Origin: Leucoraja ocellata
Lineage: Eukaryota
NCBI GenBank assembly: GCA_036785375.1
Contig: JAWMAR010000328.1
Location: 558,001-622,000 of the forward strand
Direction of reading: 5' to 3'
DNA: 64,000 bases
The notes beneath the pieces were generated by a model, which made no database searches, was not told where the DNA came from, and worked only from the letters and a program-made list of their open reading frames with translations. A program made the position numbers and the translations under genes. This document shows, one piece after another, positions 3,138 through 54,399 of the stretch (position 1 is the stretch's first letter; each line of letters starts with the position of its first letter).

Positions 3138-4214
3138 GTTGGTGTCTAATTTATTTGATTTAATCTGAAAATGCAAATAGACAGAAAACATGGAACAGCT
3201 TTTGAAAAGCATTGTTAATGATTCATTTCCCTGAATATGACATTTGCTTCCAGGGCTTACTTGGGGCCATGAGTGTATTTGTTTTAATTGTCTCTACTCT
3301 CGAGTTTGAGGGCATCTCTCCTCTCTTCTCTAAAATATTATTAAGGGTGACAATAAACACATAAATCAAATATTGCCGCAATTATTAATTAATTAAAATA
3401 TATTAATTGGATGGAACAATATATCTATGCATTAATATTTAAGAATAATATAGTTTAACATTTTTTAAAGTTTCATTGGCCTAATAATCGTTGAAAATCT
3501 TGCATTTAGGAGCTGCATTGGTCAGTGAATGCTGTGTACATTGTCTAGATTATTTTAAATGCATTTAATATTACACTAATTTATAAAAATGGAATGGCAT
3601 AATTTTGTGAGTAGTCAAACCAATGATAATTGCCCCAGATAGCACTCCACCAGTAATTAAAACCAATAACAGTTGTCCAGCATATCTATCTTTTTGTGGA
3701 AATGGGATAGCTAGTAATTTATTTCTTCAAACCTGGAGGTCAAAATATACAAGCAGTTGTTAAACTTTGAAGTTCTGCCATCAGATTAAGCTGTATTTCA
3801 TTCTTATCAGGACACTGATGGAGACGCTTCAACCAATTGGGTCCAAACCAGCTCCCAACAGAGCAATCACATTGGCCCCTTTTCCTCATTACTTATTTAA
3901 CTGTATCCCCGCTACAGTACAATAAGTAGCGGGGGAATGGTACCATTGCCTATCAACTTGCCTTTTTAAATGTGTTTCTGTTTCTGAACACTAAGGAGTA
4001 GTTTACAATGGGCCCATTAAGTTGCTATCACATCTCTGGAAAGAAAGTAGAGCAGCTACCAGAAACTTGACGTCACAGCTGCACTTTAAAAACTCCTGTC
4101 TAAATATTAAGAATCATTCAGACAAGTACACGGACAGGAGAGGTTTAGAGGGATATGGACCAAACACAGGCAGGTGGGACGAGTGTAGATGGGGCAAGTT
4201 GCACTGAAAGGCCA

Positions 4215-12885: not shown

Positions 12886-13179
12886 ATAAGCCTTTCACTT
12901 GGTATTCTCATATATGGTATTCTCATATATACCAAGCAATCGCATATCATTTATTGTGTGTTTTGTTTATTATTATATGTATGGCTGCAGGCAACGACAA
13001 ATAAAGGATCTAATCTAATCTAATAAAGGATCTAATCATAAGGAAATGCTGAAACACCACTTAATGAATGTTTTTAACCACCATTTTGCCTCAATATTTA
13101 TTTGTGCTATATAATGAGAAATGGGTCGCAATTACAAAGTCTTAATATGTTGAACAGAAGTTATTTTTGGTACTTTCAG

Positions 13180-13388
13180 TTTGACCTTGCATTTGTGGAG
13201 GTTTACCGAGTGAAGAGATTCAAATTTGTACCAAAATATTCTGATGAGGAGGATGGTGATATCCAGGAAGTTAGCAAAAATCTTTTTGGACAATTCTGTA
13301 GAGACCATCCCACCTGTAGCTCTGTGCAGCTCGCCAGCAGTTGGAATTGCGATGGAGAGATAATTGAGCATGCGGCCATTGAAGTGAG
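13180..13388 (+). CDS. CERK: Ceramide kinase coding exon (about exon 12)
   Basis: tttcAG acceptor, GTATGC donor; 209 bp; FDLAFVEVYRVKRF...SSWNCDGEIIEHAAIEVR. Confidence 0.96.
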
Positions 13389-13821
13389 GTATGCTGTTTT
13401 TTTTTTACCTATTACATTGTCCAAATCAACCAAACAATGGGTGGTTGTCTTCATTAGAAATTAATCTATTTGGCACTCTACACTAATGTGTCATGCTCTG
13501 ACTTAAATCAATGTGGTGAATATTTCTGGTCTTCATAAATGTCGGAAGAGGCGATTTAAACTTTTGGTGTTTAAAATTATTGTTTTATTTGTGTGCCTAA
13601 ATTATCAGTGTGAGCTGGAAATAAACTGAAATGAGTACATGACTTTTTGCGATGAGGTTTCACATCTAAGCATAAGGAGTGAATGCAATTTGCATACCAT
13701 ATGACGTCGATTGGAAAGAGCTATGTCTTTGTAAAAAAAAATAGGTGCAGGAGTAGGCCGTTCAGCCCTTCGAGCCAGCACCGCCATTCAATATGACCAT
13801 GGCTGATCATCTAAAATCAGT

Positions 13822-37592: not shown

Positions 37593-38967
37593 GCCTCCCC
37601 AGCCTGCCTGAATGACTACCGTCCGGTGGCCCTTACCTCGGTAGTCATGAAATGCTTTGAGAGGCTGGTGAAGAATCACATCTGCGCCTTCCTCCCTCGG
37701 AACATGGACCCGTTGCAGTTTGCATACCGTCCGAACAGGTCCACGGACGATGCGGTCTCCCAGGTCTTGCACACCGCTCTCTCCCATCTGGACAGCCAGA
37801 AGGGGGGCTACGTGAGGATGCTGTTCATAGACTACAGTTCAGCCTTCAACACGATAGTCCCCACCAGACTGGCCAGGAAGCTACTGGAATTGGGGCTCAA
37901 CACCTCCCTGTGTGCCTGAGTCCTGGACTTTCTCACCGCCAGGCCCCAGGTAGTCAAGATGGGAGGGAATACATCGAAGTCCCTCACCCTGAGCACAGGA
38001 TCGCCCCAGGGTTGCGTCCTCAGCCCCCTGTTGTACTCCCTGTACACACATGACTGTGTGGCTAGGTTCAGCTCCAATTCAATAATTAAGTTTGCTGATG
38101 ACACTGTGGTGGTGGGCCTGATCTCAGACAATGATGAGAGGGCCTACCGGGAGGAGGTGGCTGATCTAGCACTCTGGTGCCAGGAGAACAGTCCCCTCTT
38201 GAACATCAAAAAAACGAAGGAGCTGATCATGGACTTTAGGAGGGCACATCATCCGAGGACGTACACTCCATTGAGTATAAATGGGGATCCTGTGGATAGG
38301 GTGAACTGTTTTAAATATCTGGGAGTCCACATCTCTGAGGATATGACATGGTCATCACACGCCTCAGCACTGGTGAGTAAGGCAAGGCAGCGCCTTTACC
38401 ACCTCAGGCAATTGAGGAAATTCAGAGTGTCTCCGAGGATCCTCCAGTGCTTCTACGCAGCGGCGGTGGAAAGCATCTTGTCCGGGAACATTACCATCTG
38501 GTTCGGGAATTGCTCTGCCAAGGACAAGAAGGCTCTGCAGAGAGTAGTGCGTTCGGCCGAACGCACTATGGGAACTTCACTCACCCCCCTGCAGGAACTA
38601 TACAACAGGAGGTGCAACTCCAGAGCAAACAAAATCATGAGAGACCTCTTCCACCCCTGCAACGGACTGTTCCAGCCGCTACGGTCAGGCAAACGCCTCC
38701 GTTGCCACGCAGTGAGAACGGAGAGGTTGAGAAGGAGTTTCTTCCCAGAGGCAATTCGGACTGTAAACGCCTTTCTCACCAGGGACTAACTGTACAGAAC
38801 GTTTTTCCTTCTATTATTTATTATGTAAAATAATATGTGTGTTATGATTGTGTTTATAATTTGTTTGGTTGTTTTGTTGTTCCGCGAGCATTGCCACTTT
38901 CATTTCACTGCACATCTCGTATGTGTATGTGACAAATAAACTTGACTTGACTTGACTTGACTTGACT
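37593..38967 (+). mobile_element. Young 5'-truncated Rex1/Babar LINE; RT frame open except for one TGA (37917-37919)
   Basis: [23 protein letters not shown]...[11 protein letters not shown]...PQGCVLSPLLYSLYT...KFADDT...; AATAAA + (CTTGA)5 tail. Confidence 0.95.
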
Positions 38968-42560: not shown

Positions 42561-44246
42561 ACTGGCGGTAATATGCCCAATTTCAATTCGTTTTTATCCA
42601 CTAATACTGTTGAGTATATTTTAGTTATTTGTGACAGCATCCCATGCTTTATCAACAAGTGTAAATGCCCCCCCCCGCAGTTAGTAGAACACCCTTATTT
42701 AGTGTAAACTGGGAGGAACCAGACTACCTACCTCCATGTTTATTGTTTTTTCATGAAGGCCTAGTTTGCTGGTATGCTGGTGCTGTCGGTGGGGCGGCGC
42801 ATTTTCCCACGGCTCCGCTCTGGGCCCCTGTCTAAAAAGAACTTTGGGGTAATGTGAAGCGGTCGCCAGGCTTTCACCAGTCCTTGTTTGATATTGCTGG
42901 TGGATGCCGAGGGGTGCTGCCAGCTGGGTGTTGGATGCGATGTCCTGCTCGTTCCATGGCCTGCCCTCATGAGGCGCACAGGTTTAGCTGCCTCTCTTCC
43001 CGCAGCAGCGGTTTGCATAGCCCCGTATATTTGGGGTTGCGGGCAGGTCTTATATGCACCATTGTTCAGTCGAGTATCCCAAATTTGGGAACATCTTAGG
43101 CGTCAGCACCCTGGTAGTGCAACGGGATAGTCTCATCCTGGGAGAACCACCTTGGTGATCATGGCGTCTCGCCTGCCAGGTGAGTATGATCCGTGGAAAA
43201 ACGAGCAAAGGCGGTAACATCTTGACCCTTCTGTTAGGAGCTTCAGAATTCGCTGCTTGTCTGCGAGTCTGCTGACCCAGCTGCCTGCGGATTTGCCTCT
43301 GGAAAGGCCTGCTCCTGCAGGGCTTTGTTGGGAAGATGGTCGCGTGGAGGAACCACGACACCCAGTAGCTCTTCCTGATCCTGCTCCCCTGGCATACTGC
43401 TGTTCTCGTCCGCCTGCCCAGCGTTTAAGCCAGCCCAGCCCTGGCCTCCTTAGCTAGCCTCAAAAGAGGGAGCAAAAGGGTGTGCTATAAATTGGAGGAG
43501 GCATAGCTCAAACTCCGCTGTTGCATCAATCCCTCGTCAAGGGAGATGGCTAGTGCAATAGCACTGGGGTAGGAGTGTCAGCTCCCTTGGCATTCAGCCA
43601 GTGCCCCTTTTTTCCTGGAGGTGAACTCCATGACCTCCTCTGGCTTGGGGAGACAGACATACTTATTTTTGCTGTCTCCAACCTGTTCCAGTTTTGGAGG
43701 AAGTTGGCTCCTGTAGAACCTGTTAAATTGGTAAGATTTTTATCTTACCTGTATGTAGAGGCTGCCTGCCGTTTTTCAGGCGGCATTGTAGCGGTTCCCG
43801 GGCGGCGATTCTCCTTGTCAGGAGTCTGCAGGGCTGCCGGTCGGGTTTTTAAACTTCCCGCCGGTCCGCTGCTGTTCACCAAACAGCTGTTCAGCGGACC
43901 GGCATCAGCGCAGCTCCCTGCAGCGGTCCGCAGCCTGTGCGGTCCCGTTAGCGCCTTTCCCCCTCCACTGTCGGCTCCTTCGCTGGAGTCGAAACGGGGG
44001 CCGCTTCCTCTGCTGCTTTGCTCCCCCTGGAGCAAAAAACCACAAGGCCCGATTAAGGTAAGTACTTACCTCACGTCCTTGGTTTGCGGGAGCTGCCGAC
44101 TCCCGCTGGCCGCGTTGCACAGCTGTGCGATAATGCCGCACATGCGCACTGGGCTGGGATCTTCACGGAATCACTCACGTGACTCCGAAGTAAATTCCTT
44201 TCTCTGCTTTGTGTATGTACTGGTTCAAAATAGATGTAGTGTTTTG

Positions 44247-44280
44247 TTAGGCTGTGCACGCCATGCGCAAGAAGAAGAAG
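44247..44280 (+). mobile_element. Severely 5'-truncated copy of the ribozyme-headed short retroelement at 54240
   Basis: TTAGGCTGTGCACGCCATGCGCAAGAAGAAGAAG vs TTAGGCTATGCACGCCACACGAAAGAAGAAG at 54345-54375. Confidence 0.7.
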
Positions 44281-45823: not shown

Positions 45824-48048
45824 ATAGTGGCTAATTATCAGAGTGGCTTTAGAAAAGGGAGAGGTACCAATGATCCAGTTCTGTGCTTGGAAGATGATAT
45901 AAGGAAAGCACAAGTTAAAAAATAATCTGTAGTTACTGTATTTTTTGATGTAGAGAAGGCTTATGATATGTTGTGGAGAAAAGGTCTTCTAATAAAGCTG
46001 CATTTAATGGGAGTAGGAGGAAATATTTTTAACTGGATAATGGATTTTCTTAACGGTAGAAGTATCCAAGTTAAAATAGGGTCAGACATCTCTAGTAAAT
46101 GTGTAGTCGAGAATGGAACTCCCCAGGGAAGTGCGATAAGCCCGATCCTATTCTCAATCATGATCAATGATATATTTGCAAACATTCAACCAGAGATGGG
46201 GCGATCGCTCTTTGCAGATGATGGCAGCCTATGGAGAAGGGGGAGGAATATAGATTTTATCATGGAAAAGGTACAGCAAGGGATAGCCCAGGTGGAAGAG
46301 TGGGGAGTGAAATGGGGTTTTAAATTCTCGATAGAGAAGACAAAGACAATGGTTTTCACAAGGAAGAAAATTAAAGAGGATGTCCAGTTAAAACTATACG
46401 GCAACAATTTGGAAAGAGTAAAAGATTTCCGTTTCCTGGGAGTCCACTTTGACTCCAGATTAACATGGAGGGTCCACATTACAAAAATAATTGGAAAATG
46501 CAAAAAAGCCATCAATGTAATGAGATGCTTGGCAGGTTTAGAGTGGGGAGCAGATATATTATCGCTTAAACATATCTATGTATCACTGATCAGATCCAGA
46601 CTAGAGTATGGCAGTATAGCTTATGGATCAGCATCTAAGTCAGTGTTGTCCGAGTTGGACAAAGTCCAAGCGGAAGCTCTAAGAATCCGTATAGGAGGTG
46701 TGCGGACGTCACCTGTATGTGCACTACAGGTGGAAACTGGGGAGATGCCATTGAGACTGCGCCGCAGACAACTAATGGCTAATTACTGGCTAAGCCTTAA
46801 GGGTCATGGAGAGAACCACCCAACAAAACAGGTAGTACAGGAATGCTGGGAGAGAGGGGTGGCTCAGTCTGGAAGCTTCGGCTGGATTGGAGGAGTTGTG
46901 GCAAGGGACATGGGAGTAGAGGACAAAGAGTTCTGCCCTGCAGTATTGTGGCCATCTGTCCCAATATGGTTACTGAACATCCCAAAAGTTGATCTGGAGA
47001 TATGGGAGGCAAAAAGGAGGGAGAAAAATTCGGACCTAAAAACAGAATACCATAACCATATATATAATAGATACAGGGAACACCTCTTAATCTTCACAGA
47101 TGGATCAAAGGACCCAGTAGCTGAAACAACAGGGGCAGCTGTGGTAGTGCAAGGGATGAATGTTGAGATTTGCAAAAGAACAAATAACTATTTGACAGTA
47201 TATATACAGTGGAACTGTACGCTATTTTGATGGCAGTTGGGTGGATAGAACAGGTGCAACCATGCAAAATATTAATTTGTAGCAACTCATTATCTGCAAT
47301 CCAGAGTATTGGGTCTGGTGCATCCCATAGGCGACCTGACAGTGTATGAAATCCTGCTACTATTAAGCCAAGTGACAAGGAGGGGCAGTGACGTGACTTT
47401 GTTGTGGGTCCCAGCACACATTGGTGTTCTAGGGAATGAAAAAGTGGATAAATTAGCAAAAGAGGCCGTTAAAAAAGAGAACATAGAGGTAAACTTACAA
47501 CTATCCAAATCTGAAGGAAGACACATTGTGTGGAAGAAAATAAATCAGGAATGGCAACAATACTGGGAACAGGAGACAAAGGGGAGACACCTCTATTCGC
47601 TACAAAACAGAGTGGGCAAATACAGCAAGAAGAGGGGGGAACAGGAGAGAACAGGTAGTATTAGCAAGATTGAGGATAGGACACACCCACCTGAACAGCA
47701 CATTAAAAATGTTGGGAAAACACCCCTACTGGGATGTGTGAGGAATGCCATCAGCCGGAAACAGTTCAGCATGCTTTAGTTGCATGTAGAAGATATGCAA
47801 CAGAAAGAAGAGTTTTGATCAATGAAATTAAGAAAATTGGAATGACAGATATATCAGAAAAGAACATTCTAGAGTATGGAGGGGAAGGAAAAGGAGTACA
47901 TTTGTTGTTTAATTTCTTGAGGGCCTCTGGCCTTATAAAAAGGATATAAAGTAAAGACACGAGGACTGTGGAGTGAAGCCAGAAGGTGGCAGCAATGCAA
48001 CATTGTGGATGCCGGCTGCCGTAAAACTCCAAAGAAGAAGAAGAAGAA
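45824..48048 (+). mobile_element. 5'-truncated I-group (I/Nimb-like) LINE with RT, RNase H and C-terminal CCHC
   Basis: SGFRKGRGT.D...FFDVEKAYD...GTPQGSAISPILF...LFADD; RNase H IFTDGSK...WVPAHIGVLGNEKVDKLAK; CEEC...H...C; (GAA)n tail; 17-bp TSD GAAGGCCTCAGAGGTTT at 45807-45823 and 48049-48065. Confidence 0.92.
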
Positions 48049-48095: not shown

Positions 48096-49106
48096 ATGAA
48101 GCCCAAGGAACACTCCAGACAGGTCAGGGATGAAGTTGTGGAGAAGTTTAAAGTAGGGTTAGGTTATAAAAAAATATCCCAAGCTTGGAACATCTCATGT
48201 AGCACTGTTCAATCCATCATCTGAAAATGGAAAGAGTATGGCACAACTGCAAACCTACCAAGACATGGCCGTCCACCCAAAACTGACAGGCCGGGCAAGG
48301 AGAGCATTGATCAGAGAAGCAGCCAAGAGGCCCATGATAACTCTGGAGGAGCTGCAGAGATCCACAGTTCAGGTGGGAGAATCTGTCCACAGGACAACTA
48401 TTAGTCGTGCACTCCACAAATCGGGCCTTTATGGAAGAGTGGCAAGAAGAAAGCCATTGTTGAAAAAAAGCCATAAGAAGTCCCGTTTGCAGTTTGCCAC
48501 AAGCCATGTGGGGGACACAGCAAACATGTGGAGGAAGGTGCTCTGGTCAGGTGAGACCAAAATTGACGTTTTTGGCCTAAATGCAAAATGCTATGTGTGG
48601 TGGAAAACTAACACTGCACATCACCCTGAACACACCATCCCCACTGTGGGTGGTGGCAACATCATGCTGTGGGGATGCTTTTCTTCAGCAGGGACAGGGA
48701 AGCTGGTCAGAGTTGATGGGAAGATGGATGGAGCCAAATACAGGGCAACCTTGGAAGAAAACCTGTTAGAGTCTGCAAAAGACTTGAGACTGGGGCGGAG
48801 GTTCATCTTCCAGCAAGACAACGACCCTAAACATACAGCCAGAGCTACAATGGAATGGTTTAGATCAAAGCATATTCATGTGTTAGAATGGCCCAAAGTC
48901 CAGACCTAAATCCAATTGAGAATCTCTAGCAAGACTTGAAAATTGCTGTTCACAGACGCTCTCCATCCAATCTGACTGAGCTTGAGCTATTTTGCAAAGA
49001 AGAATAGGCAAACATTTCAGTCTCTAGATGTGCAAACCTGGTAGAGACATACCCCAAAAGACTTGCAGCTGTAATTGCAGCGAAAGGTGGTTCTACAAAG
49101 TATTGA
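48096..49106 (+). pseudogene. Tc1 DD34E transposase pseudogene
   Basis: MKPKEHSRQVRD...GLGYKKIS...GRP.KLT...ARRKPLL...LWS(G)ETK...[11 protein letters not shown]...FQQDNDPKH...PDLNPIE...GGSTKY*. Disabled by TGA at 48222, a frameshift near 48280, D-to-G at the first catalytic Asp, and a deletion near 48895. Confidence 0.93.
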
Positions 49107-53507: not shown

Positions 53508-54239
53508 AGTATTCATCAAAAAGGAAATGTATAAACATAACACAACATCCTTCCCATGCTAAACTAAAATAACCACGCCTTGTCTTTATATCTCTGTTAA
53601 AAACCTCTCCGATATGAAAGAGATTATAATCACGTGATGGATAGCACCTTGTGATTTCTACATGAGGACATTGCCTGTTGCATCACCGACATCTTCATTT
53701 TATTTTCCAACACCACCAGTAACTTTCTTTACCTTGTTGCACTCCCTAATTGTGTACATCATACTTTCGGCATTTCGTACCTCCTGCACAGATGACCAGA
53801 TCATCCTTCTCTCCAGAACTCTGATCCTTTGATCTTTCCTGTCAAACTCATTTCTGCATGATTAGCAAACCATCTCATTTTGTCTCCTTCGGGTCAAAAT
53901 CATTAGTCCGTGCAACAAGGCCAAAGAGCTGAGCTCTGACCCTGTGGAATCCCACTGGTGCCAACTTTCTAGTTAATGAAATACTTACCCGCTAATGCTC
54001 TTTTCTTCCTGGTTCTGACTCTGTTGACACCAATTTGCCATTCTCTTGGAACCCTTAGGCTTTGTTTCAATCCATCTGTTACGTGTGGCCTTGTCAAAAG
54101 CCTTGCTAAAACTCATGTAAACTGTTTCAAAACACACTTCCCTCATCAACTCTCCACGTTACATCCTTAAAAGATAAATCAATTGTTAATGTAGCTCAAA
54201 CCAAGGCATTGGAGTTAACTGTTGTCAGCAGCCTCTAGT

Positions 54240-54293
54240 GGGGTGGAAGATTGCAACCTTCACGTGGTCCGCCCTGTTTCGACTAATGCAATC
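54240..54293 (+). ncRNA. HDV-like self-cleaving ribozyme (minimal, 54 nt)
   Basis: P1 GGGGUGG/CCGCCCU (G.U at position 1); P2 GAUUGCA/UGCAAUC; P3 ACC/GGU; L3 UUCACGU; G54276 for P1.1; vestigial P4 U-UUCG-A; J4/2 C-UAA with putative catalytic C54283. Folded by hand. Confidence 0.75.
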
Positions 54294-54373
54294 AACTCGA
54301 CGTGCACAAACGGACGTTCAAATAGAACAAGTTGTCCAACAACTTTAGGCTATGCACGCCACACGAAAGAAGA
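54240..54373 (+). mobile_element. Short non-autonomous retroelement (Ingi/Vingi-like derivative) with (GAA)n tail
   Basis: Flanked by direct repeat AGCAGCCTCTAGT(G) at 54227-54239/40 and 54374-54386/87; no tRNA boxes or ORF; 5' end is a ribozyme fold. The Vingi link is from recollection of family termini. Confidence 0.75.
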
Positions 54374-54399
54374 AGCAGCCTCTAGTGAAGTTACAGAAG

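Follow-up and report, generated by a model that had tools for sequence, protein, structure and literature searches.

Retroelements that consist of the two ends of a LINE alone and begin with an HDV-like fold at nucleotide 1 have been described for L1Tc/ingi (NARTc, RIME and SIDER; PMC4035085) and for R2 (the R2 SIDEs; PMC3414825), and in the available portions of these papers the predicted cut falls at the first base of the element. In vitro activity is documented for the heads of NARTc and SIDER, and in L1Tc the corresponding head doubles as promoter and ribozyme (PMC4035085, available text). LINE derivatives formed by internal deletion are a described class (PMC5786205). They are also reported for Vingi LINEs such as Vingi-1_EE and Vingi-1_Acar, which are ~3.1 kb long and encode APE and RT in a single ORF without RNase H (PMC5786205, PMC13708176), this last trait being the one that separates Vingi from Ingi; the same review ties HDV to R2 only in the portion available (PMC13708176). 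HDV-like ribozymes without P4 are represented by the minimal drz-Mtgn and theta ribozymes, one theta ribozyme measuring 56 nt. According to the accessible part of that study, minimal drzs are ~99% phage-borne and often tRNA-linked, and its eukaryote set comprises human, mouse and protists (PMC10879173).

The element analysed here lies in a 64,000-nt stretch of Leucoraja ocellata DNA, hereafter called the window. It resembles NARTc/RIME/SIDER and the R2 SIDEs in its two LINE ends, in the HDV-like fold at nucleotide 1 and in the position of the predicted cut, whereas it differs from NARTc/RIME and R2 SIDEs in having an animal, Vingi-type partner without RNase H, a length of 134 bp, a P4-less head of 54 nt and thousands of dispersed copies. 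The head is similar in size to the drz-Mtgn and theta ribozymes and likewise has no P4 and a C first in J4/2. Unlike the minimal drzs, it stands at the front of an animal retroelement; in the related heads, P1 and the catalytic C are separated by 19–40 nt, compared with 7 nt in the window's family.

The first-pass annotation had described the locus as a TSD-flanked insert, and the sequence agrees: the insert proper occupies 54240–54373 between two copies of a 13-bp duplication (14 bp if G54240/G54387 is counted), the initial two bases of the 3′ copy belonging also to the GAA tail. As judged from sequence, the element is a real feature and a bipartite non-autonomous LINE derivative. That is, it carries both ends of one LINE, has no coding middle and is found as TSD-flanked insertions. 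The tail comprises the last ORF codons, the stop codon (54346–54348), a short 3′ UTR and the GAA repeats, and the junction region that precedes it varies between subfamilies, the window copy having private changes at 54315 and 54317. We regard the anatomy given in Table 1 as very likely correct. A 20-codon ORF running from 54286 to the partner's stop was discarded as evidence, since the ORF of the partner begins further downstream; an open frame of 20 codons has, by estimate, a chance expectation of ~40%.

Table 1. Features of the element and of a related fragment in the window
Feature	Position in window	Strand	Basis or remark
5′ TSD copy, 13 bp	54227..54239	+	sequence
Minimal HDV-like ribozyme fold, 54 nt	54240..54293	+	descriptor and comparison; putative activity
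P1	54240-46/54269-75	+	G1.U pair
J1/2		+	2 nt; sequence
P2	54249-55/54287-93	+	sequence
P3	54256-58/54266-68	+	sequence
L3	54259-65	+	7 nt; U54259 and G54264 at core positions
P1.1	G54276-C54261	+	predicted; plus probable U.U
J4/2	54283-86	+	predicted catalytic C54283 first
Rest of stretch common to partner LINE 5′ UTR	54294..54311	+	alignment
5′ arm of predicted end-to-end helix	54301-54308	+	duplex prediction
Junction region, rearranged LINE 5′ UTR remnant	54312..54331	+	alignment
Tail from partner LINE 3′ end	54332..54375	+	38/44 identical to L112
3′ arm of predicted end-to-end helix	54351-54358	+	duplex prediction
3′ TSD copy	54374..54386	+	sequence
5′-truncated copy from a shorter sister subfamily, likewise derived from the partner LINE	44228..44280	+	51 nt at 98%

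All helices that had been proposed for the head were recovered at the same places and in the HDV order, i.e. as a nested double pseudoknot with the catalytic C, the G1.U pair, the L3 U/G and P1.1. The L3 U/G pair has a core role in HDV-like ribozymes. A strict descriptor matched the window only once, at exactly these 54 nt, and never in 100 dinucleotide shuffles, a loose descriptor giving 0.01 matches per shuffle. The single G-C pair of P1.1 held up as well, but P4, which had been described as reduced to a loop, would be absent rather than reduced if U54277 forms a U.U second P1.1 pair, leaving 5 nt before the catalytic C. Such a U.U pair is compatible with fast cleavage according to the available text of the study from which the structural criteria were taken (PMC13635239). 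The curated models did not recognise the head as HDV-like: the sole ribozyme-family match in Rfam was HDV-F-prausnitzii, at 16 bits (E 5.5) for a cut-off of 44, and RF00622 (CPEB3) gave no match at E up to 10. The Rfam HDV-type models shown include P4. Nested folding of the whole element was no better than that of shuffles (z 0.10). With chance-level Rfam scores and this z value, support for the fold comes from the pseudoknot pattern and from comparison. In a nested-only model the probability of P1 was 0.85–1.0 for the head alone or with 30 nt of upstream sequence and dropped to 0.01 with the tail of the window copy present. As the tail is able to displace P1 in nested folding, a cut would need to be co-transcriptional.

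In the assembly of 3.44 Gb, exact matches numbered 4,260 for a 26-nt head motif, 3,636 for a 31-nt tail motif and 931 for a motif of the young subfamily to which the window copy belongs, with 0 for the reversed controls; the copy number is at least 4,260. From 100 listed tail-motif matches, 90 were sampled by tail alone, and dropping 11 duplicates left 79 copies. The head was present in 72 of these, 60 of which had the complete 5′ strand of P1. TSDs of 8–19 bp (median 12) flanked 43 of the 60 complete copies and directly adjoined G1 in 29, so that the common 5′ end at G1 that the head had been predicted to define was indeed found. One extra base was present at 10 of the 43 junctions (6 T, 2 A, 1 C and 1 G) and more at 4. 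The catalytic C (C54283) was kept in 69 of the 72 heads, and of the 60 complete copies 26 satisfied the strict descriptor and 36 the loose descriptor. The common subfamily variants, three in number (positions 8, 32 and 45), all preserve the fold; frequent variation was seen in J1/2, at the second position of J4/2 and in a P1 pair that is either U.G or U-A, other variants lying mainly at CpG sites. Differences among copies reflect mostly decay after insertion and were not counted as covariation.

At least three subfamilies with differing junctions can be distinguished, and the family was also present in contigs of samples X1, X6, X18 and X19; viral contigs contained no relative of the element. 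The earlier reading of a SINE-like family stands as far as the family, its HDV-like head and its LINE tail are concerned, but not as a composite SINE, the element being an internal-deletion derivative of one LINE. Nor need the family be promoter-less, as that reading had it, given the double role of the L1Tc head. Likewise, the second 3′ end that had been placed at 44247–44280 does belong to the family, but it begins at 44228 and is part of the shorter sister subfamily of Table 1; no TSD was seen around this fragment. A repeat at 43900–44195 was rejected as a part of it, as it is of a separate family and stops before the fragment. The window carries at ~43200–44195 a young, GC-rich, high-copy repeat, the best 40 copies of which are 96–100% identical over ~295 nt. 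Elsewhere, in several copies of the short element (L078, L080, L090, L095 and L099–L101), other repeats, possibly with Harbinger-like ends, have inserted at an identical TTTAG site and separate the body from the tail. At G000:C1:19261560-19274607 and 19413142-19428672 (L052–L060) heads recur every ~2 kb with identical flanks, and the element sits there within a tandemly amplified unit. TSD-flanked copies of ~80–85 nt (L032 1491–1570, + strand, and L221) contain little beyond the ribozyme and the tail.

A partner of the autonomous type, a single-ORF APE-RT LINE with both ends in common with the element, was found in the same genome, and its domain layout supports the Vingi derivation that the first-pass annotation had offered as a possibility. 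A tail pattern excluding the upstream bases of the short element had 32 matches, including one duplicated locus with coding sequence before the tail, and a search with that locus returned 969 candidates, 40 of which were scored; LINE ends with the young-type tail had 8 matches. The ORF of the partner ends at a TAG that corresponds to the element's stop codon. A natural copy (L196 plus L422) consists of the head, a ~110-nt 5′ UTR, a broken APE-RT ORF, an inserted repeat and the same tail, flanked by an 8-bp TSD. Its ORF aligns over residues 29–1008 of a 1,019-aa APE-RT relative, and nucleotides 1–72 of the element are 90% identical to the L196 5′ end; the identity of the last 44 nt to the LINE 3′ end is given in Table 1. 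Every partner copy seen is broken, and the partner 5′ body had no reads in the poly(A) run X24. In a Pfam search of five ORF pieces, the C-terminal one included, RT was detected and RNase H was not, and no RNase H domain is on record among 120 listed relatives (119 of 119 single-element ones plus one fused). The name Vingi-type is used here for this layout (single ORF with APE and RT, without RNase H), which is the one given for Vingi in PMC13708176. Its C-terminal part and 3′ end presumably resemble those of Vingi as well.

Two other reverse transcriptases in the window, the RT plus RNase H element at 45926–47779 and the RT at 37920, were rejected as partners, both lying far outside in the RT tree. 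A BLAST search of the window with the partner copy returned only the present element and an unrelated repeat that had inserted into the partner copy. The element at 45926–47779 (+ strand), an RT followed by an RNase H fragment, is an unrelated I-group-like LINE. A Tc1-type transposase is found at 48163–48909 (+ strand), and two ceramide kinase exons at 1018–1296 and 13078–13464 (+ strand) lie on the element's strand more than 40 kb upstream; all 11 named matches among 12 to a ceramide kinase exon are from sharks, rays or a chimaera, in line with a cartilaginous fish as host.

The expected conservation of the fold was also observed, in that related LINE families bear HDV heads with different but paired stems. 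In the same genome, families B and C (~39% and ~48% identical to the 1,019-aa relative, respectively) have HDV folds of their own at their start. Among 77 metagenome loci, 25 reach the ORF start and 22 have enough upstream sequence; an HDV match just before the ORF was found on the sense strand in 6 of these 22 distant loci (4 independent) and on the antisense strand in none, with 0.04 expected, the other 16 being without a descriptor match. A core-only search added two heads (L347 and L383). Over nine heads, 59 of 62 P1 cells, 54 of 54 P2 cells and 27 of 27 P3 cells were paired, with several pair types per position, counts that are partly circular since the heads were picked by pairing; it is thus position and strand that constitute independent evidence. 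When strands were swapped between families, the paired fraction was 0.71 for P1, 0.53 for P2 and 0.74 for P3. P1.1 covaries: GG follows P1 in both heads with C at L3 position 2, and GU in 6 of the 7 others, the two-pair form of P1.1 occurring in L339 and L347. The catalytic C is present in all nine families, and by sequence comparison P4 is missing solely in the window's family. Related LINE 5′ ends with strong stems missed by the descriptor were seen at L329 (~1–130), L317 (~420–470) and L326 (~285–360), all on the + strand; L326 resembles an HDV variant whose L3 is short, and L329 possibly belongs to a different class of ribozyme.

Besides the ribozyme, the two ends of these LINEs appear to be connected by base pairing. 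The bases after the ribozyme complement those before the terminal repeats, a relationship first seen by eye in families A and B. With windows of 30 and 35 nt, fixed after the ends of the other families had been looked at, duplex energies were better than those of shuffles in 5 of 6 families (p 0.002–0.018; p 0.71 for family C), and the true matching of ends ranked 7th of 720. Two later families gave p 0.004 and 0.056, so that the pairing was significant in 6 of 8 families overall. Internal windows did as well in 1/79, 7/85, 22/83 (family C), 0/88, 2/85, 0/85 and 1/86 cases. The end-to-end helix of the window copy itself, which has a private A at 54352, was not significant (p 0.18). A further peculiarity was that, in 7 of 22 distinct truncated LINE ends (30 loci, 8 duplicates left out), an inverted head was joined to the 3′ piece (L106, L109, L123, L126, L127, L128 and L135), inside one TSD in L106 and L128. 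The inverted pieces start mostly around nt 70–125 of the 5′ end, and 4 of the 7 run to within ~1 nt of G1, which suggests that the LINE RNA ends at G1. We take these structures to resemble the products of twin priming.

Taken together, the element is quite probably a non-coding derivative of a Vingi-type LINE, made of its first ~72–90 and last ~44 bases, which the LINE protein likely copies in trans after the HDV-like head has likely cut a read-through transcript at G1. The shared ends, the TSDs, the copy number, the ends at G1 and the conserved fold are observations, from which we infer the following steps. A host transcript would read through a sense copy, and the double pseudoknot would fold co-transcriptionally, C54283 with Mg2+ cleaving 5′ of G54240. 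The two RNA ends would then be drawn together by pairing between the stretch downstream of the ribozyme and the one that precedes the GAA repeats, and the LINE APE-RT protein would prime on the tail at a nick and copy to G1, leaving a duplication of 8–14 bp. That self-cleavage is the source of the 5′ end we consider probable.

Initiation of transcription at +1 would explain 5′ ends at G1 equally well, and the head could be mainly an internal Pol II promoter starting there, or promoter and ribozyme at once like the Pr77 of L1Tc, which is both (PMC4035085; PMC8256844, available portions). In the poly(A) run X24 (~6% read, perhaps from another species, and with antisense and decayed copies mixed in), 610 reads fell on the family, 95% of which continue into unlike flanks; at 54239 and 54240, respectively, 115 and 108 reads (223) continue upstream. 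Neither at G1 nor elsewhere was an accumulation of read starts listed for this ~6% of the run. Much of the family RNA is uncut, and a cut is not visible in these reads, as a promoter would allow, although the reads are compatible with cleavage as well. A strand imbalance over the head (278 versus 182) was discarded as evidence because library strandedness is unspecified. Copying of the cap is expected to add a G often, as in L1. A lone extra G was present at only 1 of the 43 junctions, however (2 if TG is counted), and what the related heads conserve is the pairing and not the sequence of the stems, as expected of an RNA fold. We consider a promoter origin of the 5′ ends improbable, though the head may have a double role.

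Alternatively, the short element might carry the fold as a passenger that is active in the LINE but slow or misfolded here and kept for a 5′ structure or for the end-to-end helix. The protein would then need this structure or helix for binding, second-strand priming or protection from exonucleases; the R2 ribozyme fold does protect 5′ ends (PMC13708176, available text). In favour of this reading, read-through RNA is abundant, mispairing of tail and head is possible in the window copy, and the inverted heads suggest contact between the protein and the 5′ region. Without a cut or a promoter, however, upstream host sequence would be expected often in the copies, whereas most TSDs adjoin G1, and the retention of the catalytic C in nearly all sampled heads and in every family argues against a passenger, a reading we judge somewhat less probable still than that of a promoter. 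A Pol III SINE with a small-RNA-derived head, which the size, the GAA tail, the absence of a T4 run and a B-box-like 9-mer (one mismatch) at 54316 might suggest, is very unlikely, since no tRNA gene was found, no A-box-like site precedes 54323 at up to 2 mismatches, the head with A and B boxes typical of tRNA, 5S or 7SL SINEs was not found, and the head is instead nearly that of the LINE's own 5′ end. Self-cleavage at G1 is the preferred source of the 5′ end.

The comparison of heads also bears on the CPEB3 ribozyme (RF00622), a single-copy intronic ribozyme whose ancestry was left open for want of non-mammalian relatives, in the part of PMC8233481 available. Sequences related to CPEB3 are reported from genomes outside the mammals, with retrotransposition as a possible means by which such ribozymes spread (PMC8256844, available text); the accessible text of PMC10919898 offers no origin for CPEB3. 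The window head and the CPEB3 ribozyme have the same 7-nt L3 and G-U after P1, but the former does not match RF00622 and its LINE lies on another branch. The RF00622 cut-off of 35 bits was passed at 55.6–64.2 bits by heads of family B (L290, L291, L301 and L308) and by those of a metagenome LINE with a 14-bp TSD (L339–341). The other heads scored at most 24.7 bits, so the HDV fold alone does not give a CPEB3 score. Of the first 37 positions of the ribozyme, L339 has 35 in common with the printed Rfam consensus, and in a quick RT tree (31 rows, unnamed relatives) family B and L339 group together (SH-aLRT 98), the partner of the window element lying elsewhere. Family B heads have 21 exact matches; they were seen at L290–L294, L301 and L308 (e.g. 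L291 1379–1452, + strand), and the L339 head is at 3617–3689 (+ strand). On these sequence comparisons, descent of the mammalian CPEB3 ribozyme from a LINE head has about an even chance, convergence being a possible alternative source of the likeness. The wider proposition, to which we give slightly less than even chances, is that Vingi-type LINEs as a group would start with HDV-like ribozymes and clasp their RNA ends, the present element would be the smallest working form, P4-less and animal, and CPEB3 would be the domesticated head of such a LINE or of a short derivative, family B and L339 representing the missing non-mammalian outgroups.

In the literature searched (Repbase/Dfam and supplements lying outside it), we found no HDV ribozyme on Vingi-type LINEs, no P4-less animal form, nothing on this element family or on pairing of the RNA ends, no Vingi origin of CPEB3 and no LINE clade passing the CPEB3 cut-off; the available portions of papers that name both Vingi and HDV draw no link between them. 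The family, or ribozymes on Vingi, may already have been described in Repbase/Dfam or in earlier papers on Vingi or HDV ribozymes.

For a Vingi-type retrotransposon, the element represents a minimal template of natural origin. Gene-writing platforms make use of Vingi-1 with donor RNAs that retain the native UTRs (PMC13708176, available text), and a ribozyme and an end-to-end helix in Vingi UTRs would be directly testable design rules. The range of P4-less HDV ribozymes would also be widened from phages to an animal genome, where natural variants number in the thousands, and the result on the sister families offers, for the CPEB3 ribozyme, outgroups and a specific origin that can be tested.
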